Assembly (NCBI GenBank): GCA_963766775.1
Contig: CAVYBP010000010.1
Span: 120,523-184,522 of the forward strand
DNA: 64,000 nt
Source of the DNA: an uncultured Phycisphaerales bacterium
Lineage (GTDB): Bacteria > Planctomycetota > Phycisphaerae > WQYP01
Reading direction: 5' to 3'
Part shown: piece after piece, positions 1-64,000 of the stretch
How positions within the stretch are numbered: the first letter of the stretch is position 1
Layout of the letters: every line of letters begins with the position of its first letter
Program-made: the position numbers and the translations under genes
Notes under the pieces: model-generated
The model's input: only the letters and a program-made list of their open reading frames with translations
What the model was told of the DNA's origin: nothing
Database searches by the model: none

Positions 1-3
1 CCC

Positions 4-645
4 ATGTACCACGCCTGCCCCAACTGCCCCGTCCATCCCCCCGTCGTCGCCGAAGTCGTCTCTGCCCACACCGACGACAGCCTCAACAGTTGGCACATGG
101 AACACATCTCCATGGTCAGCCACACCGGCAGCCACCTTGACGCCCCACTCCACAAAATCCGAGGCGGAAAATCCATCGATCAGTTCCCCCTCGACGCCTT
201 CGCCGGTCCTGCCTTCATCGCCGACCTCCGCGGCATCGCCCCGCGCACGCCCATCACCGCCGAACTCCTCGCCCAAAAACTCCCCCCAAATCTCGCCCAC
301 CGCATCGTCCTCCTCGCCACCGGCTGGGGAGACAAACGCGCCGCTACCCCCGAATGGCACCACCATTCCCCCTTCCTCACCGAAGACGGTGCCCGCTGGC
401 TCGTCGATCATCAAGTCAAAATGATCGGAATCGACCACTACTCCATCGGAGGCTCCACCGAACCCGCCAACGCCGCCACCCACACCCTCCTCCTCTCCGC
501 GTCCTCCCCCGTCCTCATCGTCGAAGATCTCCACTTCCCCGAATCCGTCTTCTCCCTCCCCCAACCTCTCCAATTCATGGCACTACCCATCCACTTCCGC
601 AACTTCAGCGGCTCCTTCTGCCGCCCCGTCCTTATCCTCCCCTGA
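4..645 (+). CDS. cyclase-family protein (kynurenine formamidase-like); ORF is open to the window start, so the 5' end may lie upstream
   Basis: ORF open to window start; motif HTGSHLDAPLH matches the HxGxHxDxPxH signature of the cyclase/arylformamidase family. Confidence 0.55.
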   Translation: MYHACPNCPVHPPVVAEVVSAHTDDSLNSWHMEHISMVSHTGSHLDAPLHKIRGGKSIDQFPLDAFAGPAFIADLRGIAPRTPITAELLAQKLPPNLAHRIVLLATGWGDKRAATPEWHHHSPFLTEDGARWLVDHQVKMIGIDHYSIGGSTEPANAATHTLLLSASSPVLIVEDLHFPESVFSLPQPLQFMALPIHFRNFSGSFCRPVLILP

Positions 646-650
646 TCGAC

Positions 651-3125
651 TCAGCCCTTACGGGGTCGAACCAACATGCCCACCGCACCCACAATAAAAG
701 CTCCCAGGCACCCCGGCTCCGGCACTCGCGCCGAACCCGGCAACGATTCCGCAAACCCCACCACATTCGCGCCCCCCGGAATCGCCACCCCCAAATTATT
801 CAACACATCATTCAAATCATTCAGGTCAATCGTCCGCGCCCCATCAAAATTCCCGCGCGTCCACAAACTCGTCGCCGTCCCAAGATTATTCAGAACAACA
901 TTCAAATCGTTCAAATCCACCTTCCCATCATCATTGGCATCGCCAATAAACCCCCGATGGATATCGATGAACCCGGCATCCTCATTCCCTTCCAGCGTGT
1001 ACGAAATATTGCTGACAATCGGCGGCAGAACAATCGATCCCGTGTCGCCACCAAGAACACCCGAGTAAGACATCACCTTGTAGTACCCCAGCGACGTATT
1101 GCCAACCGAACCCTGCGACGCAATCACCAGGGTGCCTCCCGCGAGAGTGATGTTCCCATGAACCGCCAACAAATCGCTCGCTCCCGAAGGCGAGCCGAGA
1201 TCGAAGGCGAGGGTCGTATGAACATTCGTCGTCAACCCACCCACGGTCAACGTGCCCATCGAACCCGCAAGCCCCGGGCTGATCGTGTGAGAGCCGCCAC
1301 CCGGCATGATCGGCCCGCTGATGGCACCCGTGCCGCCCAAGGTCCCGCCCGCCAAGGTGATCGCGCCCGCTCCCGACGCGCTGCCAACTGTATTGGTAAC
1401 CATCAGCGTGCCCCCGCTGACGTTGGTTCCGCCCGTGTAGATATTATTCCCGCTGAGGTTGACCGTTCCCCCGCCGGCGATGGTCAACGCCCCGCCGCCA
1501 CTGATGACGCCCGGGATCGCCACTGTCATCGCTCCGTCGGCCTGAACAGTCCCACCGCCGCTGTTGAGAACAATCGCGCGATTGGTGGCACCCGGATTGA
1601 CGTTGAAGAGTCCGACATTCGCTGTCGCTTCAAGAGTCCCGCCGCTGAAAATAATCGGACTGGCGGTGGTAGCGTTTCCCAACTCACCGTTGGCGTCGAC
1701 CGCAATCGTGCCTTCGTTAATGAAAGTATCGCCCGTGTAGCTGTTGCTTGCATTGGAAAGAATGAGTCTGCCAACCCCGGATTTCACGACCGATGTGGGC
1801 ACGCCGGTGCCGGCGTTGGTGATGCCGTCGCCAATCGTCAAATCGCCCGCGGTGCTGTTCTGAATAATCGAAAATGTCGCACCCGTATTGCTGACATGAT
1901 TCACACGCACGGTTCCGCCGGTGAGCGTGGCCCCGCCCGAGTTCGGCGTCACCAGGATTCCCCCGATGGTCCCCAGCCCCGTCTGCGTCAAAACCACAGG
2001 GGCGGCGTTGTTGAAACGCATCGAGCCCGCACCAAACGCCCCAATACTTTGATTGCTGGTCACGTCAAAGTTGTTCGTGGGAGTCGGACCGGTCGTGACA
2101 TAAGAGGCCGCGATGACTTTTCCATTGGCGTCGGTTGCGGCCCAATCGTTCAAGCCGAAGGTGGCGTAGACATTGCTTCCGGGGTCCTGCAGCATCGCCT
2201 TGCCGATCAAACCGGAAAGCGTGATCGTTCCCGTCGTGCCGAACCGCAACGTTCCTCCGACATTTCCGTTGAGGGGGCTTTGAGTTCGGGTGCTGGTACC
2301 CGTGATCGTCAACGTGGCGGTTTGGCCATTGCCCGGACATACATCAATGCTCGCAGCGCCGGTATTGATTGCAAGGCTGGCGAAGGATTGACTAATACCA
2401 CGTGCGGCCGAGCCATTCACCACCAAATGTCCCCCCGCCATATTGAGCTGAGTTCCCCCGACGATGTCGCTCGCCGGCGCTGTTGCCGCGGCGAAATCAA
2501 GGATCAGGGCACCTCCGTTGATACTGGTCGCCCCTGCCGTGCCGTAGGTATTGGTGCCGCTGAGAGTGAGGGTTCCGGTGCCGGTCTTGGTGAGTCCGCT
2601 CGCACCGGAGATCGAGCCGGAGAGGGCCGTGTTGCCCGAACCTGCAATCGTCAACAGCGAGCCGCCGATGTTGGTCGGACTCAACACCATGAGGTTCGTC
2701 CCGGCGTTGACGGTCCAGGTTTGGGGTGCGCTGAGGGTCAAACTGCTGGGCGAGAGCGTGAGGTTTTGCGATGCCGCCGACATATCAATGCCGGCCCCGC
2801 CGAGCGTGAGCGCGTTCGAGAAGTTGTCGATGGTCACGGCGGCGGCTGGGTTCTTCATGACAATGCCCAACCAATTCGTGTCCGATCCCAGCCTGAACAT
2901 GGTCGGCACGGCCAAGTTGGCGCTGCCATCCCACGCGGCAAGGTCCGCATCGCCGGGAACATTCACGCTCCCAGCGTTCGTCTCATCAGTCCACCCGCTT
3001 GCGACGTTGAGTACAGTGCCGCCATTGCTGGCATAAGTGTCGGCGCAAAGGCAGGTGCGCGAACCCGCCCCCGACACGAGAACCACCATCGCCAAAACCC
3101 GCGGCACCTTGCGCAATGTACCCAT
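651..3125 (-). CDS. large secreted PEP-CTERM-anchored protein with autotransporter-associated beta-strand repeats and two dockerin-like repeats
   Basis: signal peptide MGTLRKVPRVLAMVVLVSGAG (alternative start at 3152); ~700 aa of Gly/Thr/Ser-rich beta-helix-like repeats; two DANDDGKVDLNDLNVVLNNLG-type repeats; C-terminal VPEPG + hydrophobic helix + RPRKG = PEP-CTERM sorting signal. Confidence 0.6.
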   Translation of the reverse strand: MGTLRKVPRVLAMVVLVSGAGSRTCLCADTYASNGGTVLNVASGWTDETNAGSVNVPGDADLAAWDGSANLAVPTMFRLGSDTNWLGIVMKNPAAAVTIDNFSNALTLGGAGIDMSAASQNLTLSPSSLTLSAPQTWTVNAGTNLMVLSPTNIGGSLLTIAGSGNTALSGSISGASGLTKTGTGTLTLSGTNTYGTAGATSINGGALILDFAAATAPASDIVGGTQLNMAGGHLVVNGSAARGISQSFASLAINTGAASIDVCPGNGQTATLTITGTSTRTQSPLNGNVGGTLRFGTTGTITLSGLIGKAMLQDPGSNVYATFGLNDWAATDANGKVIAASYVTTGPTPTNNFDVTSNQSIGAFGAGSMRFNNAAPVVLTQTGLGTIGGILVTPNSGGATLTGGTVRVNHVSNTGATFSIIQNSTAGDLTIGDGITNAGTGVPTSVVKSGVGRLILSNASNSYTGDTFINEGTIAVDANGELGNATTASPIIFSGGTLEATANVGLFNVNPGATNRAIVLNSGGGTVQADGAMTVAIPGVISGGGALTIAGGGTVNLSGNNIYTGGTNVSGGTLMVTNTVGSASGAGAITLAGGTLGGTGAISGPIMPGGGSHTISPGLAGSMGTLTVGGLTTNVHTTLAFDLGSPSGASDLLAVHGNITLAGGTLVIASQGSVGNTSLGYYKVMSYSGVLGGDTGSIVLPPIVSNISYTLEGNEDAGFIDIHRGFIGDANDDGKVDLNDLNVVLNNLGTATSLWTRGNFDGARTIDLNDLNDVLNNLGVAIPGGANVVGFAESLPGSARVPEPGCLGAFIVGAVGMLVRPRKG

Positions 3126-3245
3126 GGGGAAACCGGCATGCATGTGCATCATCTCCAGCGGGTTGCTTTTGTTTTAAGTGGGATCAAATCTATTCGAGAT
3201 GCGGCGGGTTGCAAGTCTGTTTTGGCAGTTTGGCAGGATAGGGAA

Positions 3246-4812: not shown

Positions 4813-5538
4813 TCAATCGATTTTGTAAACAGTCCAGTATTTGCCGTTGGGAGGTTGACCGGAGGTTGAGACGATATTTGCGTCATAGTCGGAGGCAATG
4901 TGTTGTTCGATGTGGCCGTCGAGGAAGAGGACGTTGCCCTTACCCAAATGCCGCAGATTGAGGGCCTGCACTAAGGTTTGGGGCTGAGTCACACAATCCA
5001 CGTCTCCGCGATAACTGACGATGGGATTAATGCCGCTCCCTGTGATAGTGGCGGAGTCACACATGAGCAAGGCGGTAGAAGGATGGTTGATATCCGACAC
5101 TCGCCAGTTCGTGCCATTCATTTTTCCGGACGCGAGGCGGTTGGAATTACTATCGACGAATCGGATAAGACAGTAATCGATCGGTCCCATGTTCGCGGTG
5201 GCAGCTTGACTTCCGTTAAGCATATAGTTGCCAAACTGGGCATCGCCAGGACAGGTATGGAGGCCGCGTGAGAATTTGGAATTATTAGGCCATTCCGCGT
5301 CATAGACACCATTTCCACCGATGGCAACCGCCCAAGTCGTGGGGCTTTGGATCCAGCCATCATAGTCGGCAGCGTAGATGTTGATGACGCCTCCCCATTG
5401 TTTGAGGACGGCGGCACACTTCACGCGGATGGCGCTTGCCTTAGCACGGTTGAGGGAGGGCAATAAGACCGCGATGAGAAGTGCGATGATCGCCACCACA
5501 ACGAGAAGTTCGATGAGGGTAAAACCGCGTCTACGCAT
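4813..5538 (-). CDS. prepilin-type N-terminal cleavage/methylation domain protein (DUF1559-like pseudopilin)
   Basis: [28 protein letters not shown]-terminus (class III signal peptide), C-terminal NVLFLDGHIEQH motif; ORF extends to 5556. Confidence 0.7.
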   Translation of the reverse strand: MRRRGFTLIELLVVVAIIALLIAVLLPSLNRAKASAIRVKCAAVLKQWGGVINIYAADYDGWIQSPTTWAVAIGGNGVYDAEWPNNSKFSRGLHTCPGDAQFGNYMLNGSQAATANMGPIDYCLIRFVDSNSNRLASGKMNGTNWRVSDINHPSTALLMCDSATITGSGINPIVSYRGDVDCVTQPQTLVQALNLRHLGKGNVLFLDGHIEQHIASDYDANIVSTSGQPPNGKYWTVYKID

Positions 5539-5944
5539 GACATCTCCAATCCGCATTAAATTTTACAAACGCCACACTTTAGGAAATGTAACAGCCCCTT
5601 GGCGGAGGGCTCACGTGGCACACAATGCACAGCTCCCCGATCACTTTCATAGACATGTTCGCACAAGTTTATGAAATTTTGACCACGAAGGGATCTGCAG
5701 ACATCTCAAGGATATCGGATTAACGACGAAAAGCAAGGATTGATTTCGGAGATTTCAGGACATCGGCAGCGGACGAAGGGATAAATATGCGAATCAGGTC
5801 AGCGGTGCGGAATTTATGGGCGGTTCTTACAGTTATTAAGCGATAAATAAGCGATTTAGTTAGGGGACCAAAGGGTTAGAAGCAGAGTCAACTCATCGAT
5901 TCCTCATTATTGGAGGATAAGGGCTTGGGGCGCAAACATGCGCG

Positions 5945-6005: not shown

Positions 6006-6725
6006 TCAGGGGGCGGCAACAGTCCAGATGCGCTTGCCGATAGGAAGAGGTGAATCATAAATATTGGCTTTGTAATCCGCCCAGTTGTGCTGCTCTACGT
6101 GGGCATCCAAAAACAACACGTTACCAAGGTTTTGATGCCGCGCGAGCAGTCCGGCTTGCAAGGTTTCTACAAGGCCATCAAATTGTCCGAAGTAGGTGAC
6201 GAGACCTTTCGCACCAGCAATAGGTAGCTGGCCCGCCCCCTGCCCCACATCGGCCATTAGAAGTGCAGAAGCGGGATGGGTGATATCCGTACTTCGCCAG
6301 TAGGTTCCATTCATACCGCCGGAGGCATGCAGGTTGCCGATATTATCCGTATAGCGGACAAATCCATAATCTATGGGCCCTGCGGGAATAGAGGTCTGAC
6401 TCCCTGCCTTAAGATAGACGCCAAAGGCCGGATCTGCGGGGCAGGTATGCAGTCCTTTGGAAAATTTCGAGTTTGGCGGCCACTCGTTGTCGTAAAAGTG
6501 CTGGGTGTTAGGATTTGCCCATTGCGTATCGGCTTGCATCCATCCATCGTATTCTGTCATGTATATATTTACAATATTACCCCATTGCTTAAGCACTGAG
6601 GCGCATTTCACGCGATATGCTGTCGCCTTTGCCTTGCCTAGAGCAGGGAGGAGGATGGCGATCAGCAGAGCGATGATGGCGACCACCACGAGTAGTTCGA
6701 TAAGGGTGAAACCCCGTCTACGCAT
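6006..6725 (-). CDS. prepilin-type N-terminal cleavage/methylation domain protein (paralog of 4813-5538)
   Basis: [28 protein letters not shown]-terminus, [12 protein letters not shown] motif; start at internal Met (ORF extends to 6869). Confidence 0.7.
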
Positions 6726-8508: not shown

Positions 8509-9586
8509 TCAGCGTTGGAGTTCTTGGTTTTCGGGGATTCCGGGTTCGTCGAGGAGTTGGAGGGAGGTAGCGGGGCCGAGGTCGGCGGGGGCGTCCCAGG
8601 CACGGAGGGCCCAGACGAGTTTCTTGTCGGGGGTGACTTCGAGAGCCTGGACGGACTTGGGCCAGTCTTTGGGGTTTTTGATTCCGTTGGGGCACCAGTT
8701 GGTGATGACGGTGTTGCCGTTGGCGAGGCGGTCGGCTTCCTGGATGCTGAAGAGTTTGATGTCGGGGACGTCTTTCTGGGTGAATTCCCAGACGGTTTGT
8801 TTGTCGGGGGTGACTTCGTGGATGAAACCTTTGTTGCTGGTGATGAGGGTGTTGCCATTTTTGAGGCGGACGGCGGCCCAGGGCGCGGGGACTGCGATGG
8901 ACCAGATTTCCTTGCCGGTGTTGTCGTATTCGGCGACTTTATTCATGTCCATGTGGGTGGCGAGGAAGGTACCGGCGGCGGTCATGCGGACGCGGCGGAA
9001 TTGGCCGTGGGTTTTGGTGGGGTAGCCGGTGGGGAGGGTGAATTGGGTTTCGGTTTTGTCGGTGGCGAGGTTGAGCACGGTGAGTGTGGCGGGGTTGCCG
9101 TTCTGGACGTACATGACGCTTGTCGAGGCCGATGGGTTGGACGGAATGGACTTCAAAGCCTTTGGGGGCGGTGTAGGACCAGAGGATTTTTTTGTCAGCG
9201 GAGATTTTGGCGGCACCGGTTTTACAGCCGTAGACGACGGAGCCGTCGGAGAGGAGGGTGGCGTCGGAGAATTCGGAGAGTTGTTTGTTTTCGTCTTTGG
9301 TAGGGATGGAGTAGTCCCAGACGATTTTGCCGTCCTTGACGATGAACATGGTTTGTTGGGGCTTGGGGTAGTTCCACTCGCCGGCGTAGAAGAAGGGGTG
9401 TTGTGAGAGGCCATTGCCGGGGAGGGTGTCGGGGGAGAGTGGGCCGGTCCAAGCGGGTTTTGTGGAGGCGGCGCGGGTGGTGGTGGGGAGGGTAGTAGAG
9501 GTTTGTGCGTAGAGGGGAAATGTGAGGGCAAGGAGCAGGGACAGAGAAAGTTTGTAGGGCATGGGTTCTCCAGAAAAAGATGCCAC
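8509..9586 (-). pseudogene. secreted beta-propeller repeat protein, paralog of 13249-14319, interrupted by a 1-bp frameshift near 9120-9125
   Basis: N-terminal half read in ORF 8939-9586 and C-terminal half in ORF 8509-9531 both align with the intact paralog; length 1078 nt is not a multiple of 3; removing one A from GACAAGCGTCATG restores IGLD-SVMYVQNGN. Confidence 0.5.
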
Positions 9587-9600
9587 GACGCAAGATAGAT

Positions 9601-10260
9601 TTAGCCGCGGTCCTGGGGACCGCGTGCGAGTGAGTCAATACCGCTCGACAAAGGCCCAACGCTGGCGTTTTTTTCCCTCTTTGAGGGGATTGTTTTCGAC
9701 GTACTTGATCGCGCGGTGCATGTCCTGGGGCGAATCGAGAAAGACGTTCCAGCCGCGACGCGCCAGCAGGTGGCGCGGCCGCCATCGGGATCAAAAGAAT
9801 TCTGAAAGGGATGAATTTGCGCGGCCGTCAGCGCCCCGCTCGCCCGGCCTTTGAGTTGATTCATGACCTGCGTGATGGGGCGGTGTGTGCGGCCGATGAC
9901 GAGGTGAACATGTTGCGGAAGGATAGCGCAGGCATGAAAGCGGAGGAGCCAATGGGTCATGACTTCCTGGAAGCCGAGGGCGATGGCCACGGCTTGGTGT
10001 CCGTCCCAAGTGACCGGTGGATGTTTGAGGAGTTGTTTCATGGCGAGGCGATGGTCGCGGTTGTGGGGAACGGCGGCGACGGATTTTCGGGTTTCGACTT
10101 TGGTGGCCTTTCCGCCGGCGAGGAAGAGTTCCCATGCGCCGACGAAGTCGGACCAGCTTCCGCGCGGGTCGTTGGGGAGCCAGAAGCCGTAGGCGGTGAG
10201 GATCATGTGGTAGCCGAGGATCATGGTCGCTCCGCGTGCGGCCCCGAGGGCCGCGGCTAA
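9601..10260 (-). mobile_element. IS200/RAYT-like element: single HuH-Y1 transposase gene flanked by 13-bp terminal inverted repeats embedded in GC hairpins
   Basis: ends TTAGCCGCGGTCC (9601-9613) and GGGCCGCGGCTAA (10248-10260) are inverted repeats; hairpins CGCGGTCC-TGG-GGACCGCG (9606-9624) and GCGGCCC-CGA-GGGCCGC (10238-10254); element exactly fills the intergenic gap. Confidence 0.55.
9635..10224 (-). CDS. IS200-like/REP-associated tyrosine transposase (HuH Y1) with a frameshift near 9750-9770
   Basis: GYHMILTAYGFWLPNDPRGSW N-terminus, HuH motif HVHLVI; true C-terminus WNVFLDSPQDMHRAIKYVENNPLKEGKKRQRWAFVERY (catalytic Tyr in IKYVENNP) is in the +1 frame ending at 9635; 590 nt is not a multiple of 3. 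Confidence 0.5.
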
Positions 10261-10265: not shown

Positions 10266-13120
10266 TTAGTGTGGGAGGTTTCCGAAGTAGATGGAGAGTT
10301 GGGTGTGGTAGTCGCCGGTGGCGATGGGTTGTTGGGAGTTGGGGCCTTCATCCGCGGGGTTGCTGAATTTTGTGCCGATGGCGGGGATTGCGTGGAGGAA
10401 GGCGATGGAGGTGGCGGGGTAGGGGACGAGGGTTTTGAGGGCGAGTTTTTTGTCGGGTTGGGTGGGGGTGAAGTTTTGGAGGAAGAGGTTATCAGTGTGG
10501 ACGAGGAAGGTGATGGGGCCTTCGGTGGTTTGGTATTGAGCCCAGCGGACGTTGGCGAAGTAGCCTTTGAATTCGGGGTATTTCCAGGGGATGGAGCCGG
10601 TGACGGAATCGTTGTAGTCATTTTGCCAGACGCCGAGGGTGGGTCCGGCGGTGCGGTTTTTGTAGACGCGGGTGGGTCCGTCGCCGAGCCATTTGAGGGA
10701 TTTGATATTTTTTTCGGGGTAGTTGAATCCGAGGCCGATGAAGTTTTGGGGGCCGGTGAGGTTGTAGGTGGCGTCGAAGTCGATCCAGCCGGAAGAGTGG
10801 ATACTCCATGTGGCGGATTTCATATTGCCTGAATAGGTGGCGGTGACGGTGGCGAGGATGTCTGCATTTTTAGCGTAGTCGCCTTTGAGAGAGATGAGTT
10901 TGGCGTCGCCGGTGACAAGGCGGGGGCCATTGGTGAGGGAGAAGTTTTTTCCGCCGTGCGCGACGGAGGCGAGAAGTCCATCGGACTTGTGGAAGGTGAG
11001 GAGGAGGCCATTGGTGCCGGTGACTCTGATGGCGTCGGGGGATTCGGAGACGTTGGTGATACCGTTGGCGAATGCGGGTTGAGTCGTGATCGCCATGTCG
11101 GGGGTGGCATGTGGTAAGTAAAAACCGGCGTGAAAAGTTCTTCGCCGGCGGCGTTTTCGATGCGGATGGCGAGGGCGTCGGCGGGTTCGGCGGGCTGTGT
11201 GGTGGGCGGGAGGTGGAATAGAAGTTTGCCGGTGGCACCGGGGGCAATGTCAGGGGAGGCGATGGGGCCTTCGGCGACTACTTTGAAGTTCGTGGTGTTA
11301 TCTGACAGGGAGGGGAATTTGCGGAGTTGATAGGAGAATTTGCACTGGTTCAGGTTGACGAAGTCGTAGCGGTTTTCGACAGTGAACTGGTTGTCTTTTG
11401 GGACTTCTTTGTTGGTGATAACGACGGGGGACCAGAGTTGTTTGATGGTGTAGAAGGAGGCTTCTTTTTCGCGGTAGGGGCCGACGATGCCGTCGGGGGC
11501 CAGGTTGCCGCGGGTGTCGAGGAAGCCACCGGCGTCAACGCGTTTGGGGGCTTCATCGAGGAATGCCCAGATGAATCCGCCGGCGGAGACTTTGCCGTGG
11601 CGGATGACGTCCCAGTAGTCTGCGAGGGATGCGCCGGCGCCGCCGTCGTAGAGGCCGTGGATCATTTCGGTGGGGAAGAAGACGTTGTCGCCGTCGAGCT
11701 TTGGCGACGAGGGTTTTGTAGTCGGGGTAGTGCTTGGTGTCGACGTGATCGTTGACGGCCCAGGGGTGGAGGACGTGGCGTTTTTGCGGGTCGATGCGGG
11801 GAAGTCGGCGTCGAGTTTGGTGTTCCAGCCGCATTCGTTGCCGTTGTCCCAGAAGAGGATGGAGGGGTGGTTGACATCGCGTGTGACCATTTCCTTGACG
11901 ACTTTGTGGCCGATGTCGTCGTCGTAGTTGGCGTGCCAGCCGGGGAGTTCGTCGAGGACGTAGAGGCCCATGTCGTCGCAGGCGTCGAGGAAGTGCTGGT
12001 CGGGCGGGTAGTGGGACATGCGGACGGCGTTCATGTTCATCTGCGTGCATGAGGGCGATGTCGTCGCGGGAGATTTTTTCGGAGGTGCAACGGCCGGAGT
12101 CGGGCCAGAAGGTAGTGGCGGTCGGAGCCTTTCAAAATGATGCGGTTGCCGTTGACGAAGAGGCCTTCGCCGTTGCGGACTTCGATGGTGCGGAAGCCGA
12201 AGCGTTGAGGGTATGGTGTGCAGGGTGACGTGCGCCTTTTTTAAGGCGGAGTTCGGCGAGGTAGAGGTTGGGGGTTTCGGCGGTCCAGAGTTTGGATGGA
12301 TTTGAGATTTGAGATTTGTGGAGAGGAGAACGCTCCTGACGGTTGCGTCTCGGAGTTCCCGCTGGTGCGGTTGAGGGTGGCGGAGAAGGGTTGGCCGACG
12401 GGGTTGCCGTCGGTGGTGAGGATTTGAGCTTCGAGGGTGGTGGCGGGGTCGGCGTGGTCGGTGAAGGCGTCGAGCGGAGAAAGAGCCGTCGGCTTTGGCG
12501 TTGATGGCGACGTGGTCGATGAATTGTGGTGGGACGGATTCGAGGTAGACAGGGCGGTAGATGCCGCGCGTAGTTGCAGTAATCGCCGCGGCGTTCGGCG
12601 TTGTTGATGGATGTGGTTGGCGGATTCGTCGATCGACGATGACGTCGAGGGTATTGGGTGCGCCGGGTTTGAGGAGGTTGGTGACGTCGTATTTGAAGCG
12701 GAAGTAGCCGCCCTGGTGTATGGGGCCGACGGATTTGCCGTTGATGAGGGCTTGGGTGTCCGTCATGACGCCTTCAAAGACGAGGAAGTTGCGGCGATTG
12801 GCAAAGTCGGATGGGAGGGTGAAGGTGGTGGAGTAATGGCCATGGACGGGAATGACGGGGACGCCGGGTTTCGTTTTGGAGCTGCGGTGTTCGACGCCGT
12901 AGGTGAAGATTCCGAAGCCTTGGAGTTCCCAGTTGGAGGGTACGGGGATGGTGGAGGGGGTATTGGCGTGTTGGCCGGTGGTGCAGGAGAATTTCCAGGG
13001 GATGGCATCGTCTTTATTATGGCCGGAGAGGTAGAGGGTGGCGGTCTCGGTGGGGGGCTGTGCGGCAAGGGCGGAGGTGGCGGCGAGGAGTAGGGTGGCG
13101 ATGGAGAGAGGCAGTTTCAT
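10266..13120 (-). pseudogene. GH2 beta-galactosidase (lacZ-like) with at least 6 frameshifts
   Basis: signal peptide MKLPLSIATLLLAATSALA; GH2 segments GIYRPVYLE, KLWTAETPNLYLAELRL, QRFGFRTIEVRNGEGLFVNGNRIILKG, MNMNAVRMSHYPPDQHFLDACDDMGLYVLDE, C-terminal Bgal small-domain (ORF 10266-11096), scattered over three frames between 11500 and 12650. Confidence 0.5.
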
Positions 13121-14319: not shown

Positions 14320-14356
14320 GGAAAACCCTCGAGAAGGAAAGTGACAATGCGGCGGA

Positions 14357-33285: not shown

Positions 33286-35877
<2,592 letters not shown>

Positions 35878-38325: not shown

Positions 38326-39024
38326 ATGCGGTTTCGCTCATTGATACGTTGTTTGGTAATTCCCGCGGTCGTTCTCGGGCTTGCGGGCGTCGCGCATGCG
38401 GCGGCTTTCACGTCGAGCGCAAATTTTGCGAGCTGGGACAACGGCGGCTACAGCGTTCAAAATGACGTCTGGAACAAGAGCGCCAATCCGGAGACCATCT
38501 GGGCCAACTCCTTCAGCAATTGGGGCGTCTCGACCCACCAAAGCGGGGGCGGCGTCAAGTCGTATCCGCATGTCCGGAAATTTATCAAGAAATCCACCAA
38601 TTCGCTCCGCAGTTGCAGCAGCAGCTTCAATGTCTCGGTTCCCGGCTCCGGCGTTTTCAATGCTTCCTATGACTGCTGGGTTCCCACGGAAGTGATGGTG
38701 TGGATGTATCGCGCCGGCGGCGATAATCCCATTGCCAAGGGTTACGACTCCCACGGTGCCATCCCCAGCTTCACGAACGTGACGGTTGGCGGCCATACCT
38801 GGAATGTTTATATCGGCGGCAACCCGAAGGTTGTCTCGTTCGTCCGCACCAGCAATACGACCAGCGGCTCTGTCGATCTCAAGGCAGTGTTGCAACACGC
38901 GGTCGCCAAGGGTTGGGTTAACAACGGCACGATCGATAACATTCAGTTTGGCTTTGAAGTCGTTTCGACCAATAACAATACGGAAAAGTTTACCTGCAAC
39001 AAGTATTCGCTGTCGTTTAACTGA
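38326..39024 (+). CDS. glycoside hydrolase family 12 endoglucanase-like, secreted
   Basis: signal peptide MRFRSLIRCLVIPAVVLGLAGVAHA with GGAGG RBS; GH12 nucleophile motif TEVMVWM and acid/base FGFEV. Confidence 0.55.
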   Translation: MRFRSLIRCLVIPAVVLGLAGVAHAAAFTSSANFASWDNGGYSVQNDVWNKSANPETIWANSFSNWGVSTHQSGGGVKSYPHVRKFIKKSTNSLRSCSSSFNVSVPGSGVFNASYDCWVPTEVMVWMYRAGGDNPIAKGYDSHGAIPSFTNVTVGGHTWNVYIGGNPKVVSFVRTSNTTSGSVDLKAVLQHAVAKGWVNNGTIDNIQFGFEVVSTNNNTEKFTCNKYSLSFN

Positions 39025-51419: not shown

Positions 51420-52495
51420 CTATTGGGGAGGGCTTTTATAGAGGGCGGAGTAGTCGGTGTCGGTGGGGTGTTGGGCGTACCAGGCGAACAGAAATGAGTA
51501 GACTCGCAGTGCGTGGGGTTGCGTTGCGGGGGGGGGTGGGGTTGCGATTGCTGCTTCGGTGGTGGCTTTCCAGTGGGTTCCATCGGTGGTGGTGAGAATG
51601 AGGGGGGTTTTGAAGGGGAGGGTGGAAGTGGGCCACGGGGGGGTGGGGGCGACGGGGAAGCGGATGTCGTCGGTGGCGAGGTAGAGGTTGAAGGGGTCCT
51701 GGGCGTCGGTGTAGGACTGTTTCAGGGTGCGCAGGCCGCGGAAGACGCGGGTGGCGGGGTGGGCGGCGAGCCATTGTTTCCAAGTGGTCAACTCGAAGGG
51801 GAGGAGGGTAAGCGACTTGCCGGCGGCGGGGCCGGCGATGGCGCGGAAGGAGAGTTGGGACCACAGCGATTCCTGCGCGGGGTCTGGATGGCGGTCGAAG
51901 AGGAGGAGGTTGGAGTTGTACAGGAGGCCGGAGACGCCGAATTCGAGGCCGGAGGCGGGGGCGGGGACTGGGGAGGGGGGGGGGGGGCGGGGCGGGTGAA
52001 GACGACGGCGCTGCCGGAGAGGGCGGACCAGGTGACGGCGAAGGGGGTGTTGGCGATTCGGTCGTTGACGATTTCGTGGAGGTTCATGAAGCGGATGGGG
52101 TAGGCGCGGGCCTGGCCGTCGATGAGGACGCCGATGACGCGGTCGGGGCCGAGGAGGAAGGGGGTGTAGTCGTGCTGGTTCATGAGCTCGACTTCGGGCG
52201 GGGAGAGGGTTTCGACGAGCGATTCGGGGACGGCACGGACGGCGTCCTTGGGCTTTCCGGAGGGGATGAGCTGTTCGCGCGGGACGGTGAGGTTGGCGAG
52301 GTTGAAGTGGTAGGAGTCGAGATGCTGGCCGTCGCCGACGGCGGAACGGAACCCGGTCTGCCACACCGGGATGAGGACGATGACAGCGGAGAGGAGGGTG
52401 AGGATCGCGGCAAGGAGGAGGACCCAGCCGCCGGAGGAGAAGGTGAGGAGGCGGGTGGGGGGGTGGGGCGGCGGGATTTCTGGTGGGTGTTGCAT
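51420..52495 (-). CDS. membrane-anchored DUF3179-like protein interrupted at an internal G13 (poly-Pro-coding) tract
   Basis: N-terminal TM (GWVLLLAAILTLLSAVIVLI) and DYTPFLLGPDRVIGVLIDGQARAYP in ORF 51788-52495; C-terminal half in ORF 51420-52364; frames switch at G13 tract 51975-51987. Confidence 0.45.
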
Positions 52496-53429
52496 GGTGC
52501 GTATGGTAGCGGGATGCGCGGGGTTTGGGGTGGGTAAATTGTAATTGGTAAATAGTAATTGGCGATTTCTTTGAGCGCGGTTGGGGGCAAGGTGCTCATT
52601 GGGTTTGCGCAGGTGCGCAAATGGGAAAGTGGTGTAAGTGGTTGGGGATGCGGGGGTTGGTTCGAGGTGCGCAAGATGCTCATTTTATTTTTTAATTCGA
52701 GGGCGAGTGTTGGGGCTTGGGTCTTGAGTCTTGGGGGGTGGGGAGGGAATGCTGAATGTGGAGTTCTGAATGGTGAAGGGGAGAGTGGGTGCATGGTGGT
52801 CTCCTATAGAGGGGCGGTGCGCCCGAGTTTGTGCGCACAGGATCGCGGGGTGGAGGATGCAAGTGGTTGTGGGGGTGTGGGTTGGGTTTTTTGGAGGGGT
52901 GGAAAATTTGTGGCGGGAGGGGTTGGGCTGTGCGCACAGGCGGTTAAAGGAATTGTTGGGGGGGGGGTCGACTTTTAGAGTGTTTGGGGATATGCGGGTG
53001 GGCAATTTTTTTTTGGGGGGGGGGGCGTGCCGGGAGAAGGGTGGTGGGTGACATTTTGGCGGTCTTTTGTGGCTCGCCGAGCGAAAAAAATGTTTGGGAC
53101 CTCACTTTGCTGGATTCCTCTGTCCTTCTATTAAATTTAATTATAGATATATTCATGTCTCCATTAAAAATGGAGTTGGTTTTTTTATAGGGGTATGGAG
53201 TGGTGAGGGGTGGGTGGGTTTGGGGGAGGTTTTTTTTGGGGGGGGTTGAGGGTGGTGGTGGTGTGGTGCCGGGGGCGGGGTGGTTGTCTGAGGATGGGGG
53301 GTTGGGGTTTGGGGCTTTTGGGGGGTGATTGGAGGGGTAGCGGGGGCGGATGGATCGGGCGGTTTCGGAGGAGGATGGGCCGGCGGTTGGGAGTACGCGG
53401 GTAGACATTTTAGGCGGTCTGTGCGTGAC
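52496..53429. other. 0.9-kb G-rich (plus strand) gene-free low-complexity region with poly-G tracts, repeated TGCGCA boxes and an AT-rich hairpin
   Basis: no ORF with protein-like composition; G8-G12 runs at 52966, 53014, 53237; GTGCGCACAGG x2, AGGTGCGCAA x2; CTCCATTAAAAATGGAG hairpin + T-run at 53158-53187. Confidence 0.5.
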
Positions 53430-54153: not shown

Positions 54154-57100
54154 TCAATCTCGCCATCCATTCTCCTTCATCATCCGTGTAAGTATCTCGT
54201 CCGCGTCATTCATCGCTGAAGTGCGTGTCCAGTGGCGACGATTTAGTGGTTTTAGGATGTGAACTCTGTCGGCCTCGTAGAGCACAAAGCCTTTTAGACG
54301 TGTGAATTGGACACCATGGTCCGATGTCTGCTGGCGAATACTTTCCAACAAATTTACAACATTATCGTCGACCTGGTCCTCGCAGTATTTCTTAGGCTGG
54401 TCGCCGAGACCAAGGGTTATGAGGGCTAAGCCGATCTTGGTCGCAACATGTCCTTCCGCCCAAAGGCTTCTATTGGTCCTACTCCAGTCGCGAAAATTCT
54501 TCACCAAGCTTTCCGCGTATTCCCTTCGATGTACGGGGTTAGACGGCGCGACGGTCAAAAGCCTGTCTGATAAGAGAGAACCAGGGGTGGAGCTTGGGCG
54601 AAAGAGTCCGACAGTGTCCTGCACTAGCTGCAACTCCCAATCGCACATTTCGAAATATTTGTATACCAGATCGTGTAAATCCTGTTGAGCAGCTTCAATC
54701 AAACCCTCCCTTTGCAGAAAGTTATTTGGCTTTTGTATTTCGCTACGTAGTTTACGCATGCGGCTTGCGCCGGTTTTCAATATGGACTCGCTAAGTTTTG
54801 GATTTGGCATGTCCTCCGGCAACGGAAATGGTAGTTCCAAAATTTCCTCTAATCGAGCAACGTCTCGCTCTATCCCAATGTTTGCCGTGGTGTGGAAAAG
54901 GAGGTATTGGGTCAGTGGGCTGGACAGGACAATCGTCAAGAACAGCAGCTCATCCTCCTCGTGGGAGGGCGCCACATATGGCTTGGAAATCGTGTTGGAA
55001 AAGCACGTCAAAATTCGAAAAGAGAAATTTTGTACAGGCTTGGTTGATAAGAATCAACGGTGCCTCATAAATCAGCGGGTTTCGTTCCCGATGGAGCCCT
55101 TCCTGCTTGTATCGATTTCCGATGGGTTCGCAATCGCTACGCAATAAAAATAGATCGTGAACCGTTGCATCTGCCGCAAGAAAAAGATCAGTGTCTTTCC
55201 AGAAAATTAGCTTAGGAACTGTCGTACTCGCGGTTGCAGGCTGAAATCCCTGACCCTTATACCATTCCCTTGTTCGCTTTTTGGAAACTAAATTATTCTT
55301 TGGAGGGCGCTTGGCCAAACGTTTCAGTTTTGGCAGTTTCATAAGGCGTTCAAGCAATCGCACATCACGTGGGGTGCCCCAGTGCTGCCTTTTCCACTCC
55401 GCGGCAGCCTCCTTTTTCTGCGCAGCCGAAACAATGTCTGATTCATAAAGGATTTTTTGGTCTTCCGGTAAAACGGGAATTATTGCTTCACGCGGATCAA
55501 TTAATTCAACTTTTGGCGACACAAATTCGAAGCTTCCCAATTGCTCATCAATATCGCGAATGTGATAACGGCTGATAAAGCAAGGACAGTCTGCGTTCGG
55601 AAATAGGACGAAGCTCCAATCTGCGAGTAACCAGACTGTTTCTAAACGATGATGTTCAAGCCAAGCTGACTGGAAGCGGTTCGTGTTGTTACTGAGAAAG
55701 ACTCGCGACGGCAAGATTTGACAAACTCGACCTCGTTCAGAGGTATGCAAGCCCGCCTTCCACATAAACCCACACGCGAGTTCGCGGGCTGGGAATAACG
55801 CTTGGCTACGATCGTCGCTCTCTAGATGGGAAAAGTATGGATTCAAGTCGATAGAAAATAGCCAATCTTCGACGACCGGAGCCGGCTTCCGGCTGACCCA
55901 TGGGGGGTTACCGATTACCAGGTCGAATTCCTTTTCGGCGGATAAATCGAAGAAATCTAACTGTCGAATCGTCGGAAAGTGTGGCAGTCTGGGGCGAGGT
56001 TTGTCATGTTCCCAGAGTATTCGAGGCAAAATTCTTTGTTTTGTGTCACGATCTAATACGTCTTTCAACTCAATGATTTCTTTCGGATCCATCTGATCGA
56101 GAAACGCGAGGTAGAGGCTGAAACAACTGACGAAGCACGCTGTTGGATGAACGTCCATTCCTCGGAGGTTGTCCGATAGAAGACGCATCAGTTCATCATA
56201 TCGGCGTCGTGTGTTGGCTCCCGGATTTCGCTTCCGCCACTCCTCCGCCATGCGAATGAAAAGTATCACCAGGAATACGCCTGAGCCACACGCGGGATCG
56301 AAGCAGCGTTTATCTAATAATGTGTCCCACCCCTCGGTTCCGATGTCGACAGCCAGTTCAGCAAGGCGTGGTGGGGTATAATATGCGCCCAAGCTTCGCT
56401 GGCTGTGAGAGCCGGAACTTTCGTGTATGTTGGCTGTTCGCTTCGTGGCTTTCTTTTCTTCTTCTAGTTCGGCTTCTGCCTCGGCACCGAGAAATTCTTC
56501 ATAAATAGAACTGATTAGTTCGACAGGCACAAAGCCGAAGTGATAGAGTTTGAAGAGCGCAAGCTGACCCGTTCGTCAGATCTTCCCCTGAAAGGAAGCG
56601 CTGGAGATGCTCTACTTCTGTCTGCTGAATTTGGTAATCATCCAATAGGGGGCCGAAGAGCGAACCGTTAAAATCTCGTTGTAGCGATTTGAAAAGGACT
56701 TCGAGCGTTTGCGGTCCGTCCGTCGCACGTTGCAAAAGCCCGAGCATGTCATCGGCTTCGGGAAGGTTGGAAGCCTTCAGATAGGAGGCTCCGATGATCT
56801 GACGATCGAAGAAGGTAGCAGGAAAATAGAAATCTTCCAATGAGGGCATGTGTCTGGCGATAGCCCTTAGCACTTCTGGTTGGACAAATGAGGTCACGTA
56901 CCTCCCGAAGATTTTCGAGAAGATTTCGGTCCACGGAAAAATGTGGATCGAAAAGCGATTTATGTTCTCGGTAGATTGCGCCCGTCTCTACTCGATAAAT
57001 TAGTTGGCGCAGCCGCAAAGCGAGTTCAATCGACCGGAGATTTTGAATAGTTTCGTTTGGTAATTCTGCGCTGCTCTCAGAGCTGTTGCGCGTTGGCTTC

Positions 57101-57501
57101 ACAAACGTCGAGAAAACTTTAATATCGCGTTTTCCTTCGGCGATGAGGAGGGTGGTCGATCCGAGATTCCACAAGTTACGCCTGAGTGTTTCAACCTCTT
57201 CTGGCGACAGATTCCTCGCGTTTTTTATGCAGACCGAGGGTCTACCTTCGGTACAGAGAACTGCATCGATTTTCAGTTCGGTAAAAAATCTTCTCAGCGC
57301 ATGGCCATGTGAACGAAATTCCGGGGCGTTTTCCCATTGGTCGGAAGAGCGAATTAGGTGCGCATCCACACAGGCCTCCCATCCGTCGCTACGGAGCAGG
57401 GAGGATGTGGAGTTTCTCACTTCAACTGTCACGAGATTCACCTTTTTCGGACGGCTAACGGCAAAGGCCGTGACTGCAGCGTAAAGGCAGGTAGACCCCA
57501 C
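54154..57501 (-). CDS. MmeI-like Type IIL/IIG restriction-modification enzyme (nuclease-like N-domain + gamma-class N6-adenine methyltransferase + target-recognition domain), split over 4 ORFs by 2 apparent frameshifts
   Basis: LLIAEGK (cf. MmeI LLIEMK ExK), ALIGRFLFSCYL and DFNGSLF helical-linker motifs, GAYYTPP, FDPACGSGVFL (SAM motif I), VIGNPPW (motif IV); ORFs 56749-57501, 56499-56897, 54950-56530, 54154-55011; GC ~50% versus 63% background. Confidence 0.5.
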
Positions 57502-57628
57502 AATATGTGGTTAATCCATTCACGTTACGCAAGATATAGTATTCTTACCACCTCTTCGTTGACACTGCAATAGGCTGCAACCCTCCCTTGGGAGTAAACG
57601 CGCTGTTGCGGTGCAGTCATCAGAACCC

Positions 57629-58896
57629 TCAACTACCGAAGAGGCTGTGGGGTTGGAAGTAGCCTTTTTGGTCGAAGTATTTGAAGGCTTCGTCGACGCT
57701 GCGGAAGACTTTGTTGGCAGTTTGGGTGATGAAGGGGCTTGGTTCTTTTTTTGGTTTCCAGATGACGTAGACGTCTTTGGCGTGTTCGTGGGCGTGTTGG
57801 AGTTCGCGTTCGACGCCGCTGCTGAGGGCGGGTTTTCCGTCTCCGGCGCCGGGGCCGGCGGGGCCGGGGAGTTCGGGGATGTAGGAGATGATCATGTCGG
57901 ATTGTCGGACGAGCATGAAGTCTCGGGCGTAGATTTGGCCGTCGATGTCGGGGACGATTTGGAGGAGGTCTGCGACTTTGAGGTGGAGGGGGGAGGGGGA
58001 GGACTGAGGGGAGGGGCTTGGGGCTTGGGGGCTTGGGGCTTGGAGGGTTGAGGGTTGGGGGTTGGGGGGAAGAGGGTGAGGGTTTGTTTGCCGGCTTGGG
58101 CGGCTTGGATGGCGAGGTTGGAGAGGATTTTTTCGTCGACGTCGCCGGGGTCGAAGGCGATCATTTTTTCGGCGATTTTGGCGCGGAAGGCGTTGATCTC
58201 AGCGAGGATGTCCGGGAGGTCCATGACGTGCGACATCGGGAAGGATGGGTAGACGGTTTTCATGTTGGGGCGGAAGAGGAGGCGGAAGAGGGTTTCGTAG
58301 GTGGGGGTGGTTCGGCCACGGGAGAGGACGAAGAAGCGCGAGGAGTCCTGAGTCTTGAGTCTTGAGTCTTGAGAGGGAGCGGGGGGGGGAGGCACGGCGC
58401 CGCCTTGGTTGGGGGGGATTCGGCGGATGGAGCGGGCGAGGATTTCGGTGGCGAGGATTTCTTCTTCGCGCCAGACCATGAGGTCTTTGAGGGAGTGCTC
58501 GAAGTCGTGGTCGCGGAGCATGCGTTGGTGGACGGTTTCGATGTTGTCGACGAGGGTGACGTAGAGGTCGGCGTCGAATGCGGCGAGCTGGTCGAAGTCG
58601 AAGGCGGAGAAGAGGCCGTGCTTCCAGCGGAAGGTGGCGTGGGTGTTGACGATGACGTTTTTGTGGTTGTGCATGTCGGCGAGGATGTCGCGGAACACGG
58701 CGCGGCGAAGCGAGTTGAGGCGTGAGAGAGGGAGGTCGAGGATGCGGCCCGGGGGGACGTCGGGGGCTTCGCGGTACATCATGTCGCCGATGTGGTAGAT
58801 GTGGAGTTGTTCGCCGTTGAGTTGTGCGATGGCGGCGACCTGGTCGAGGAATGCTTTTTTGTCGAGGCCGATTTGGCCGGTGAGGAGGGTTCGCAT
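57629..58896 (-). CDS. three-domain hypothetical protein (degenerate P-loop kinase-like N-domain) whose inter-domain linkers are encoded by simple-sequence repeats; frameshift in second linker
   Basis: N-domain MRTLLTGQIGLDKKAFLDQVAAIAQ...VIVNTHATFRWKHG; linker 1 from (TGAGTCT)3.5+G9 at 58349-58389; linker 2 from (GCTTGGGG)4 at 58014-58045; C-domain in ORF 57629-57916 (DVYVIWKPKKEPSPFITQTANKVFRSVDEAFKYFDQKGYF). Confidence 0.35.
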
Positions 58897-59893: not shown

Positions 59894-60012
59894 GGTAGAC
59901 GGTAGACGGTAGACGGTAGACGGTAGACGGTAGACGGTAGACGGTAGACGGTAGACGGTAGACGGTAGACGGTAGACGGTAGACGGTAGACGGTAGACGG
60001 TAGACGGTAGAC
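59894..60012. repeat. perfect heptanucleotide tandem repeat (GGTAGAC)x17 preceded by G8
   Basis: 17 identical 7-bp units; G8 at 59888-59895; lies 24 bp upstream of ATG at 59870 and downstream of HAD stop; inverted partial copies (GTCTACC x2-3) at 60039-60072. Confidence 0.9.
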
Positions 60013-60059
60013 GGAAAAATGCCACTGCCACCATTTTTCTACCGTCTTCTGTCTACCGT

Positions 60060-60791
60060 CTACCTTCTTCCGTTTGGCGACATTTTTATGTTGAGCCATT
60101 GTGCGAGTTGGGTGGGGGTGAGGTGGGAGAGGGAGGGGAGGGCGAAGGTGGCGTGGCGTTGGACTTGTTCGAGTGGGAGTGAGGTGGCGACGCCGAGGAC
60201 GCGGAGGTGGGCGGCTTTGGCGGCGCTGCAACCGCCTTCGGAGTCTTCGATGACGAGTGAGAATTCTTTTTCGAGTTCGGCGTCGTATTCGAGGTTGAGT
60301 TTGTCGAAGGCGAGGTTGTAGCCTTCGGGGTCGGGCTTGCCCATGCGGACGTCTTCGATGGTGACGAGGACGTCGAAGTGGTGGCGGAGGTGGAAGGCGT
60401 CGAGGAGGGTGAGGATTTCCTCGCGGCGGGCACCGGAGCAAATGGCGCGGGGGATGTTGTTTTGTTCGAGCCATTCGAGTGTTTCGCGGACGCCTGGGAG
60501 TGGCTCGGCGAATTCGCTGAGGTTTTTTTCGAAGAGGGCGTGCTTGGCGTCGGCGAGTTTTCGGATGAGTGCGGGAGGGTGCGGGCGGCCATGATCTCGG
60601 AGGATGTGGGTGAGGCCTTCGGTATCGCCGTAGACGATGTATCGGGTGAAGTAGGTTTGGGGGGAGATGGCGAGGGTGCCGCCGATGTCATCGGCGTGTG
60701 CGGCGAGCGTGTGGTTGTAGGCGCTGAGGTGGAGGCGTTCGGTGTCGGCGATGACGCCGTCGAAGTCGAAAATCACGCAGCCTTGGGACAT
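60060..60791 (-). CDS. HAD-superfamily hydrolase (beta-phosphoglucomutase/phosphatase-like)
   Basis: motif I VIFDFDGVIADTE, motif II/III (CSGARREE, GKPDPEGY...EDSEGG); stop TAG at 60060-60062 embedded in inverted copies of the heptamer repeat. Confidence 0.65.
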   Translation of the reverse strand: MSQGCVIFDFDGVIADTERLHLSAYNHTLAAHADDIGGTLAISPQTYFTRYIVYGDTEGLTHILRDHGRPHPPALIRKLADAKHALFEKNLSEFAEPLPGVRETLEWLEQNNIPRAICSGARREEILTLLDAFHLRHHFDVLVTIEDVRMGKPDPEGYNLAFDKLNLEYDAELEKEFSLVIEDSEGGCSAAKAAHLRVLGVATSLPLEQVQRHATFALPSLSHLTPTQLAQWLNIKMSPNGRR

Positions 60792-60871: not shown

Positions 60872-60901
60872 GGTAATTGGTAAATAGTAATTGGTAATTG
60901 G
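60872..60901. promoter_or_regulatory. conserved AT-rich 30-mer GGTAATTGGTAAATAGTAATTGGTAATTGG = (TAATTGG)-like heptamer x4, 81 bp upstream of HAD gene
   Basis: identical 30-mer recurs at 62682-62711; variant at 52533-52562; inverted partial copy at 62755-62770. Confidence 0.5.
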
Positions 60902-62654: not shown

Positions 62655-62681
62655 GGGGGGGCTCCTGTGGGAGGGACAAAC

Positions 62682-62711
62682 GGTAATTGGTAAATAGTAA
62701 TTGGTAATTGG
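62682..62711. promoter_or_regulatory. second identical copy of the AT-rich 30-mer, 28 bp upstream of peroxiredoxin start
   Basis: exact match to 60872-60901; forms an inverted arrangement with CCAATTACCAATTACC at 62755-62770 in the peroxiredoxin/queD divergent intergenic region. Confidence 0.5.
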
Positions 62712-63200: not shown

Positions 63201-63241
63201 ATGGAATATTGAATGGTGAATTCTGAATGCAGAAAGGGGGG

Positions 63242-63841
63242 TTAGGGGAGGAGGTCGGCGATGGGGATTTGGGCGGTAGGGTTGGCGAGGGGGGAGAGGG
63301 ATTTGTCTGGTGCCAAAGTCAGCTTTGTGGCGTATGTAAATACGGTTTGATCAGACGCATCGGGTGCAGGATCGCGATACACTTCGAGACAACTATCCAC
63401 CAGGTTTACAATCCAATAATCACGGATGCCGACGCTCGCATAAAGGCGGCATTTTGACTGGCGGTCATAGCGTAACGATGTGTCCGCAACCTCAATGACG
63501 AGGAGTGCCGTCTGGGGATGGTGTCCCAAACGAACATAGTCCCGGGGCTTGCCGCTCACGACGGCGATGTCGGGTTCGGGGTCGGTGTTCATTCCAAAAC
63601 TCAATGGAAGTTGTGGCCGAACCCAATCATTCGGAAAAACATTTTGTATCGCGGCCATGACAAGGCCGACCGTGACCGCGTGCAAATCCCGTTGGGGGGC
63701 CATATTGAATATTTCTCCTTCAATGAGTTCGACATGCTTCTCGTGGAATAAGCCTGCTTCAGCCATGCGATAATATTCTTCTCGCGTGAACCGGTAAGGC
63801 ATGGGCTCTCGACGTTCTTGTGATGTGGTGAGCATCGTCAT
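63242..63841 (-). CDS. Uma2-family (DUF820) PD-(D/E)xK endonuclease-like protein
   Basis: YRFTREEYYRMAEAGLF...ELIEGEI and IEVADTSLRYDRQSKCRLYASVGIRDYWIVN conserved Uma2 blocks. Confidence 0.55.
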   Translation of the reverse strand: MTMLTTSQERREPMPYRFTREEYYRMAEAGLFHEKHVELIEGEIFNMAPQRDLHAVTVGLVMAAIQNVFPNDWVRPQLPLSFGMNTDPEPDIAVVSGKPRDYVRLGHHPQTALLVIEVADTSLRYDRQSKCRLYASVGIRDYWIVNLVDSCLEVYRDPAPDASDQTVFTYATKLTLAPDKSLSPLANPTAQIPIADLLP

Positions 63842-63842
63842 A

Positions 63843-64000
63843 CAGGGATTATACCGTTCCCTTGGGCTGGTGATCCATGAAATCCTGGAGGATTCTGGCG
63901 GCGGCGAGGGCGTCGACGCGTTGGCGTTTTTGCATGCGGGTGAAGTGGCCGGCGAGTTTGGATTCGGAGTCGTGGCTGGTGAGGTATTCGCTGAAGCGGT
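63843..64000 (-). CDS. ruvX: Holliday-junction resolvase-like YqgF/RuvX, C-terminal fragment (continues beyond window)
   Basis: translated C-terminus RFSEYLTSHDSESKLAGHFTRMQKRQRVDALAAARILQDFMDHQ resembles RuvX C-terminus; ORF open at window end. Confidence 0.45.

Follow-up and report, generated by a model that had tools for sequence, protein, structure and literature searches.

Do the many frame breaks that interrupt otherwise well-conserved genes in a stretch of planctomycete DNA, the essential genes gyrB and topA among them, belong to the genome of the organism or to the way in which its sequence was obtained? The stretch in question (hereafter the window) covers 64,000 nucleotides (nt) of a 323,849-bp metagenomic contig (NCBI/ENA; CAVYBP010000010.1, positions 120,523 to 184,522) from an uncultured member of the Phycisphaerae (Planctomycetota). 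Its reconstructed gyrB and topA are 85–87% and 83% identical, respectively, to those of Phycisphaerae metagenome-assembled genomes (MAGs), and the closest gyrB among the species-representative genomes scanned is 86% identical. The original prediction was that about 30 single-base frame disruptions had been introduced by indel-prone sequencing or assembly. The disruptions are real features of the deposited sequence but had been undercounted, since we find at least 44 of them, spread over 17 genes. They are very probably consensus errors of long-read metagenome assembly that are absent from the organism's DNA; they are no real genomic feature. We show that the true genes are intact, and that gene calling has split them into pieces which now reside in public protein collections.

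Conserved proteins continue across the frame breaks

Breaks were located by frameshift-aware protein-to-DNA alignment against intact homologues for gyrB (three homologues: P0001, P0004 and P0009), topA (four, P0121 among them), a lacZ-like GH2 gene (four) and a gene at 39–40 kb; for the other genes, conserved peptide anchors were located in adjacent frames. Frame tracing with a codon-usage hidden Markov model served only as a guide: it found many of the sites, mis-assigned a cyclase gene, and missed both the detail of the GH2 cluster and short 5' pieces. The GH2 references were matches from a homologue search with a 2,338-aa chimera of junction windows. This query (34 junction windows, 33 of them marked in the query index) matched only GH2/convertase homologues of at least 1,285 aa, apparently a length effect.

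That protein sequence would run on through the breaks with no sign of decay had been part of the original prediction, and this is what we observe. All events are 1–2 nt in size, with a possible exception at ~12303, where the event matches a single unit of a tandem repeat of 7 nt. A single base is extra in 32 of the 44 events, and in the remaining 12 either one base is missing or two are extra. At most junctions exactly 1 nt lies between two in-frame conserved peptides, or the two overlap by 1 nt. Stop codons are absent from all 15 stitched proteins, and none occurs in ~9,000 stitched codons. Full-length homologues (83–87% identical for gyrB and topA) align across the breaks, and a range of Pfam domains cross the junctions (Glyco_hydro_2_N, Glyco_hydro_2, Glyco_hydro_2_C, Aldedh, GH43_C2, Melibiase_C, Mala_s_1-like, DUF3179 and P_proprotein).

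The three genes that were aligned in most depth illustrate this continuity. In gyrB (33286–35874, plus strand) there are three extra bases, at 34216, 34247 and 35076, rather than the two events originally counted; aligned at full length to its three homologues, the gene has 744 of 859 residues identical and no stops. For topA (41520–44235, plus strand) an estimate of eight or nine events settles at nine by alignment to the four homologues, all lying inside 2 kb: eight single extra bases (42060, 42310, 42338, 42564, 42966, 43111, 43586 and 44094) and one extra CG dinucleotide at 42748–42749. Here 733 of 884 residues are identical to P0121, again with no stops. The lacZ-like GH2 gene (10269–13120, minus strand), for which at least six events had been proposed, holds 11–12 when anchor mapping is combined with frameshift-aware alignment, comprising extra bases at ~12630, 12612, 12566, 12472, 12303, 12231, 12208, 12112, 12045 and 11699 and missing bases at ~11800 and ~11105. 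Over ~900 residues aligned to four distant GH2 homologues, at 44–52% identity, 10–12 events and no stops were recovered, and each of the three domains Glyco_hydro_2_N, Glyco_hydro_2 and Glyco_hydro_2_C crosses several of the junctions.

The genes affected are of unrelated function (housekeeping, catabolic, mobile and defence), gyrB and topA included. The events are not evenly spread between them; the clustering noted in the original prediction is borne out by an index of dispersion of 3.3 (p ~1e-9). The lacZ-like GH2 gene carries 12 events against 2.2 expected and topA carries nine against 2.1. Nine insertions are packed into 586 nt of the former (12045–12630), and elsewhere stretches of 7–9 kb are free of events.

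Related assemblies are intact or broken at other positions

MAGs of relatives that were assembled from short reads (MEGAHIT or SPAdes, with contigs named k141_ and NODE_) contain intact gyrB and topA genes which read straight through the window's break points; the relatives compared are of the same clade but of other species. Exact protein look-ups identify the window's truncated open reading frames (ORFs) as the public gene calls of the source contig, including gyrB fragments of 317 and 331 aa. For 10 additional truncated ORFs looked up in the same way, the clusters found were all singletons.

Clustering at 90% groups the gyrB fragments of the window with fragments of ENA ERZ25039475 contig_625 (L083, 387 kb), in which gyrB is ~93% identical to that of the window and has four events of its own. 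Two further contigs, L084 and L085, have one event each in topA, at residues 114 and 121 respectively, and neither falls at any of the window's nine sites. L084 is syntenic with 36–44 kb of the window and contains a compensated pair of shifts in its orthologue (L084 1316–2455) of the 39–40 kb gene. With L083, L084 and L085 broken and the short-read assemblies intact, the breakage of essential genes is thus seen to recur in the clade's Flye-style long-read assemblies, mostly at other positions.

Near-identical proteins were found elsewhere in only one run, ERR11571141, for which Logan provides an independent k-mer assembly. Protein P0265 from this run, compared with the window GH2 gene at 24598–26943, has one base fewer in GGCGCGGGG, where the window version is intact. 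The missing base truncates the N-terminus of P0265, and two substitutions lie near its C-terminus. The reads of ERR11571141 therefore look indel-noisy themselves, having produced their own one-base frame error in a gene which the window preserves.

Consensus error as the probable source of the breaks

By analogy with sister contigs named contig_N, the source contig would have been assembled with Flye from Nanopore reads, and the coverage of its population would have been modest. The regions 11.1–12.65 kb and 42.06–44.1 kb may have been locally under-polished or under-covered. Homopolymers would give rise to the deletion-type errors, whereas CpG-rich or alternating G/C contexts may favour those of insertion type via some base-calling or polishing mechanism.

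Errors of this kind have ample precedent. Nanopore consensus indels lead to frameshifted and fragmented gene calls, and short-read polishing is needed for bins whose coverage is below ~40x (PMC9262707). Soil MAGs have been generated at scale from Nanopore-only metaFlye assemblies with one round of Medaka (PMC12313526), and many 'pseudogenes' in databases are assembly errors which vary with platform, assembler and coverage (PMC11017572). The window resembles the residual indel errors of long-read (Nanopore or PacBio) assemblies, familiar from the IDEEL test, proovframe and short-read polishing, in several respects: indels of 1–2 nt fall in intact ORFs with homology resuming one frame over, no gene is exempt (essential or not), local density varies, and truncated proteins reach the databases. 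Such errors are encountered where metagenomic populations of low abundance are represented by long contigs (PMC9262707, PMC11017572, 10.1101/2021.08.23.457338). The original attribution to indel-prone sequencing or assembly is upheld by the lack of decay, the insertion-biased 1–2 nt spectrum, the clustering, the metagenomic contig of origin with its fragmented public gene calls, and the relatives, broken at partly different positions in long-read-style contigs and intact in short-read MAGs. With the breaks very probably assembly errors, the deposited gene calls of the source contig are unreliable.

Several observations weigh against this account, or at least against its simplest form. The platform of the source contig is something that we only infer. 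The error spectrum is also unusual, since long-read residual errors are classically homopolymer deletions whereas three quarters of the events here are insertions that lie outside homopolymers and favour CpG. The link to homopolymers made in the original prediction holds for the deletion-type events, which are located in homopolymers with runs of up to 13, but not for the single extra bases. Among the 21 single extra bases covered by the junction-context statistics, only 7 equal a neighbouring base (10.3 expected), and they are thus not homopolymer extensions; 11 form part of a CpG where 4.5 would be expected (p=0.0017), frequently in contexts resembling GCGC or CGCG. Within the 586-nt GH2 cluster there are nine insertions and no deletions at all. 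The insertion bias and the CpG context depart from the textbook Nanopore spectrum, and this lowers the fit to the classical profile, though not to technical error generally.

A further difficulty is that, unlike typical residual errors, several of the positions recur between assemblies. The event at gyrB 34216 shares a codon with one of the L083 events, with 1 nt left in the window and 2 nt in L083; that at 35076 is within one codon of another L083 event; and one site in the 39–40 kb gene is no more than four codons away from an event in L084. Recurrence of the gyrB sites by chance has a probability of ~1e-3, and purely random errors would not give it. Its cause must be either a systematic error that depends on context or something real at the sites. 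An inherited lesion is unlikely, because both the shift sizes and the local DNA differ. The candidates are a systematic error of this context-dependent kind, with a possible link to base modification, or a consensus of mixed strains formed at variable islands.

Alternative explanations

Strain mixture, rather than low coverage, could be the main source of artefact, if reads from co-occurring close relatives were merged during polishing and partial alleles, such as 1 or 2 nt of a 3-nt indel polymorphism, were kept at variable islands inside conserved genes. The recurrent gyrB site would suit such a process, as the codon of which the window and L083 retain different remnants at 34216 is complete in the intact relatives. 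The errors in gyrB, topA and the 39–40 kb gene fall in poorly conserved islands between conserved blocks and recur nearby in different MAGs, and conserved housekeeping genes are over-represented among the genes affected, as with the nine events of topA against 2.1 expected. However, the heaviest cluster is in the GH2 gene, which is not a housekeeping gene, and a second haplotype is not visible. A model in which insertions arise because both wobble alleles are retained was checked by hand and rejected: 15 of the 21 were synonymous, with no signal beyond chance. We consider it unlikely that strain mixture is the dominant cause.

Genuine pseudogenisation, in which genome decay would inactivate these genes and other copies would supply the essential functions, is very improbable. 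Many genes are struck, including dispensable ones (glycoside hydrolases, the transposase and a restriction-modification (R-M) gene), and decaying genomes such as those of Mycobacterium leprae and recent host-restricted symbionts likewise hold many frameshifted genes per unit length. A back-up gyrB is conceivable, because several relatives have two gyrB-family genes on one contig (P0037/P0049, P0033/P0063 and P0038/P0051; 73–77% identical to the query). Genes of this kind are therefore not strictly single-copy in the clade. This bears on the earlier argument that breakage of essential single-copy genes makes pseudogenisation implausible: essential genes are indeed hit, but the single-copy premise is weaker than had been assumed. 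The absence of decay speaks against this possibility. Real pseudogenes accumulate nonsense mutations, relaxed conservation and size-variable, deletion-biased indels, and essential genes are spared. Genomes in decay gain nonsense mutations and larger deletions, their amino-acid conservation is relaxed while essential genes are retained, and the window displays none of these; not one stop was found in the stitched codons, identity to homologues is undiminished over the junctions, and topA remains 83% identical to intact orthologues despite its nine events. From the usual ratio of indels to substitutions, 44 neutral indels should have brought with them hundreds of substitutions and some ten or more in-frame stops. 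The 32:12 bias towards insertion and the 1–2 nt size are the reverse of the deletional bias seen in bacterial pseudogenes, said to have been described by Mira, Ochman and Moran in 2001 and by Kuo and Ochman in 2009. Furthermore, the sister assemblies break at other positions.

It is harder still to credit that the indels are truly in the DNA and that gyrB, topA and the other genes are made full length by a pervasive, motif-independent frame correction at the level of the RNA or the ribosome, with the recurrent positions being inherited sites. A lineage-specific DNA modification that systematically derails base calling would be a likelier explanation for both the recurrence and the CpG bias.

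The least credible proposal is that real indels are bridged in expression by programmed +1 or -1 frameshifting, transcriptional slippage or quadruplet decoding: although 32 of the 44 events share the +1 direction, the conserved protein picks up directly past the single extra base and a few positions recur between related assemblies, the genes are ordinary and in frame in the short-read relatives, the shift at the recurring gyrB site differs in size between the window and L083, the other sites are unshared, and up to 12 sites per gene would leave essentially no full-length product at realistic efficiencies. Known cases of recoding include the +1 frameshift of prfB, the -1 frameshift of dnaX and slippage over long A/T runs in endosymbionts. 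They resemble the window in that a full-length protein is spread over two frames, but each depends on a single conserved site in its gene, marked by a defined slippery motif or a long homopolymer. In the window a gene can hold as many as 12 sites, which are heterogeneous and have neither a motif in common nor a conserved size of shift. A common slippery or quadruplet motif was sought at the shift sites and none was found, the flanking bases varying between sites, and slippage-prone A or T runs (≥9) are absent there.

Frame breaks in the remaining genes

A beta-propeller gene (Mal s 1-like; 8512–9560, minus strand) contains one extra base at 9118, where a single nt separates the peptide ...PIGLDK from VMYVQNGNPATL and a Mala_s_1-like domain spans the junction; what had been described as an AAG insertion at ~9122 is in fact this single base. 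An intact paralogue is found at 13252–14320, such that the two beta-propeller genes flank the lacZ-like GH2 gene, and an IS200/Y1-like transposase gene (9638–10224, minus strand) sits between the first paralogue and GH2. The transposase gene has a -1 type event at 9760–9763, interpreted as GGG reduced to GG, with the frame switching from ...GGRATCW to RRGWNVFLDSPQDM.

On the plus strand, an enolase-superfamily dehydratase gene (16516–17686) has an extra base at 16573 (CCG[T]TTG), across which MKITNVRTRVVEWRGKTVP runs on, one frame over, as LPPHFCTNPMD; both MR_MLE_N and MR_MLE_C are found further downstream. The sequence CCGTTTGCC thereby bears out the break that had been placed at ~16575. The adjacent gene (17708–18728, plus strand) shows single-base deletions at 18004 (TTT to TT) and at 18111 (in a G or C run), with consecutive conserved peptides distributed over three frames. 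It is a distant FAH-superfamily-like gene, and the original FAH label is weakly supported, the match in the PDB (KdaD, 2q18) being weak. Both of the events proposed for the aldehyde dehydrogenase gene (19663–21241, plus strand) were recovered, as missing bases at ~19692, near the start codon, where MAVHSILVNGEW gives way to APAKYHATF in another frame, and at 20792, where the Aldedh domain (8–411) spans the junction. A further beta-propeller gene (23189–24443, plus strand), originally labelled PQQ-SDH, is only weakly GSDH-like (E=0.002) and has an extra base within 24274–24285, where the frame switches between ...LLHFDAKGKPV and KIVSCFAPDGTTV.

The GH43 gene (26963–28645, plus strand) contains a compensated pair that was absent from the original list, with an extra base at 28124 and a missing base within 28172–28181, between which EKWSLSERPGFLRLHA can be read in the shifted frame alone. 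The ORF remains uninterrupted, and ~17 residues are wrong in the deposited protein; when stitched, GH43_C2 (369–551) spans both junctions. In the GH29 alpha-L-fucosidase gene (28675–30277, plus strand) an extra base within 29934–29999 puts Fucosidase_C one frame on from Alpha_L_fucos. A GH27 alpha-galactosidase gene (the 30.3 kb copy; 30287–31878, minus strand) has a one-base deletion at 30367–30370 (A5 to A4 on the coding strand) which Melibiase_C (453–527) spans. The gene at 39–40 kb (39020–40290, minus strand) encodes a membrane/TPR protein with extra bases at 39716–39721 and 39434, placed using anchors together with the syntenic L084 orthologue, and its TPR_19 domain is readable only in the stitched frame.

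Towards the right of the window, a secreted subtilisin/sedolisin-like protease gene with a P-domain (48711–51207, minus strand) has an extra base at ~49609, and P_proprotein (510–615) spans the junction; the S53 label it had been given is not confirmed, there being no S53 Pfam match. The DUF3179 gene (51423–52495, minus strand) has lost a base inside a G-rich stretch at 51950–51989 that includes a G13 run, and the DUF3179 domain (103–274) spans the junction. An Eco57I/MmeI-like N6-methylase gene of R-M type (54157–57510, minus strand) carries three extra bases (56798–56809, 56567 and 54960–54977), so that one long protein is read over four consecutive frames; it contains Eco57I and N6_Mtase domains and is set in a low-GC, unskewed island.

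Finally, a two-domain gene at 58 kb (57632–58896, minus strand) with an AAA_17 kinase-like N-terminus has a missing base inside a G-rich stretch with 7- to 22-nt repeats at 57976–58072, and its frame switches between ...QAAQAGKQTLTL and VADLLQIVPDIDG. Between the two domains of this gene lies a (GAGTCTT) x4.4 array (58343–58373) which encodes SRLKTQDS in all three frames. The length of this array could change the frame of the gene, and the array may mark the border between two genes.

Repeats, intact genes and strand skew

Other heptanucleotide arrays are present near the right end of the window. A perfect (GGTAGAC) x17.3 array at 59894–60073 occupies the intergenic gap between a PGDH-like and a HAD gene, both on the minus strand, and is followed 24 nt later by about five copies of the reverse complement (TCTACCG); an array followed by its own reverse complement could form a long hairpin. 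A (GGTAATT) x4.3 array occurs at 60872–60901 and again at 62682–62711, in each case just upstream of a different minus-strand gene, and is also found at 52533–52562; possibly it is a recurring element linked to regulation or to promoters. At the left of the window, 4816–5556 and 6009–6720 encode proteins with prepilin-type N-terminal cleavage/methylation signals, both intact, with a C-terminal H-X9-DG-like motif typical of Planctomycetota. Scans of the 64-kb window for tRNA genes and for Rfam families found none.

The plus strand of the window is strongly skewed, with 36.9% G and 21.1% C and with T also exceeding A. The GC skew per 2 kb reaches +0.47, and plus-strand skew at third codon positions is +0.5 to +0.88 for genes of either orientation (e.g. 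at 8–32, 42–54 and 58–64 kb). The pattern is a mosaic: skew is close to zero in the S18-ferredoxin-gyrB-SDR-arfB block at 32–41 kb and in the R-M island at 54–58 kb (GC content 49–51%), and it is reversed at the left end (segment 1–650), where the cyclase gene (1–642) has a plus-strand third-position skew of -0.85. The mosaic points to a recent inversion or acquisition, or else to selection acting on codon usage. The skew is common to the closest relatives (L001–L003), including the Illumina/MEGAHIT MAG L003 at +0.49 per 2 kb, but is not found in more distant Phycisphaerae. The strand skew is therefore biological. No description of such a skew was found in the titles and abstracts of papers that name both GC skew and Phycisphaerae. 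The skew of this lineage is real biology, and is more unusual than the frame breaks.

Consequences for the public record

The value of these observations lies mainly in quality control. The signature described here (many shifts of one base in either direction, no stops, and clustering) can be filtered automatically in genome scans, and the CpG-biased insertions and recurring error positions merit the attention of developers of polishing tools. Some errors will escape checks based on ORF length, because compensated pairs such as those in GH43 and in the L084 orthologue of the 39–40 kb gene leave the ORF open while garbling ~17–28 residues. Public gene calls are wrong for about one third of the genes in the 64-kb window, with gyrB, topA, GH2 and others represented by fragments. 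Pseudogene counts, pangenomes, selection analyses, protein-family building and structure prediction performed on this MAG and on its sister MAGs would all inherit these artefacts.

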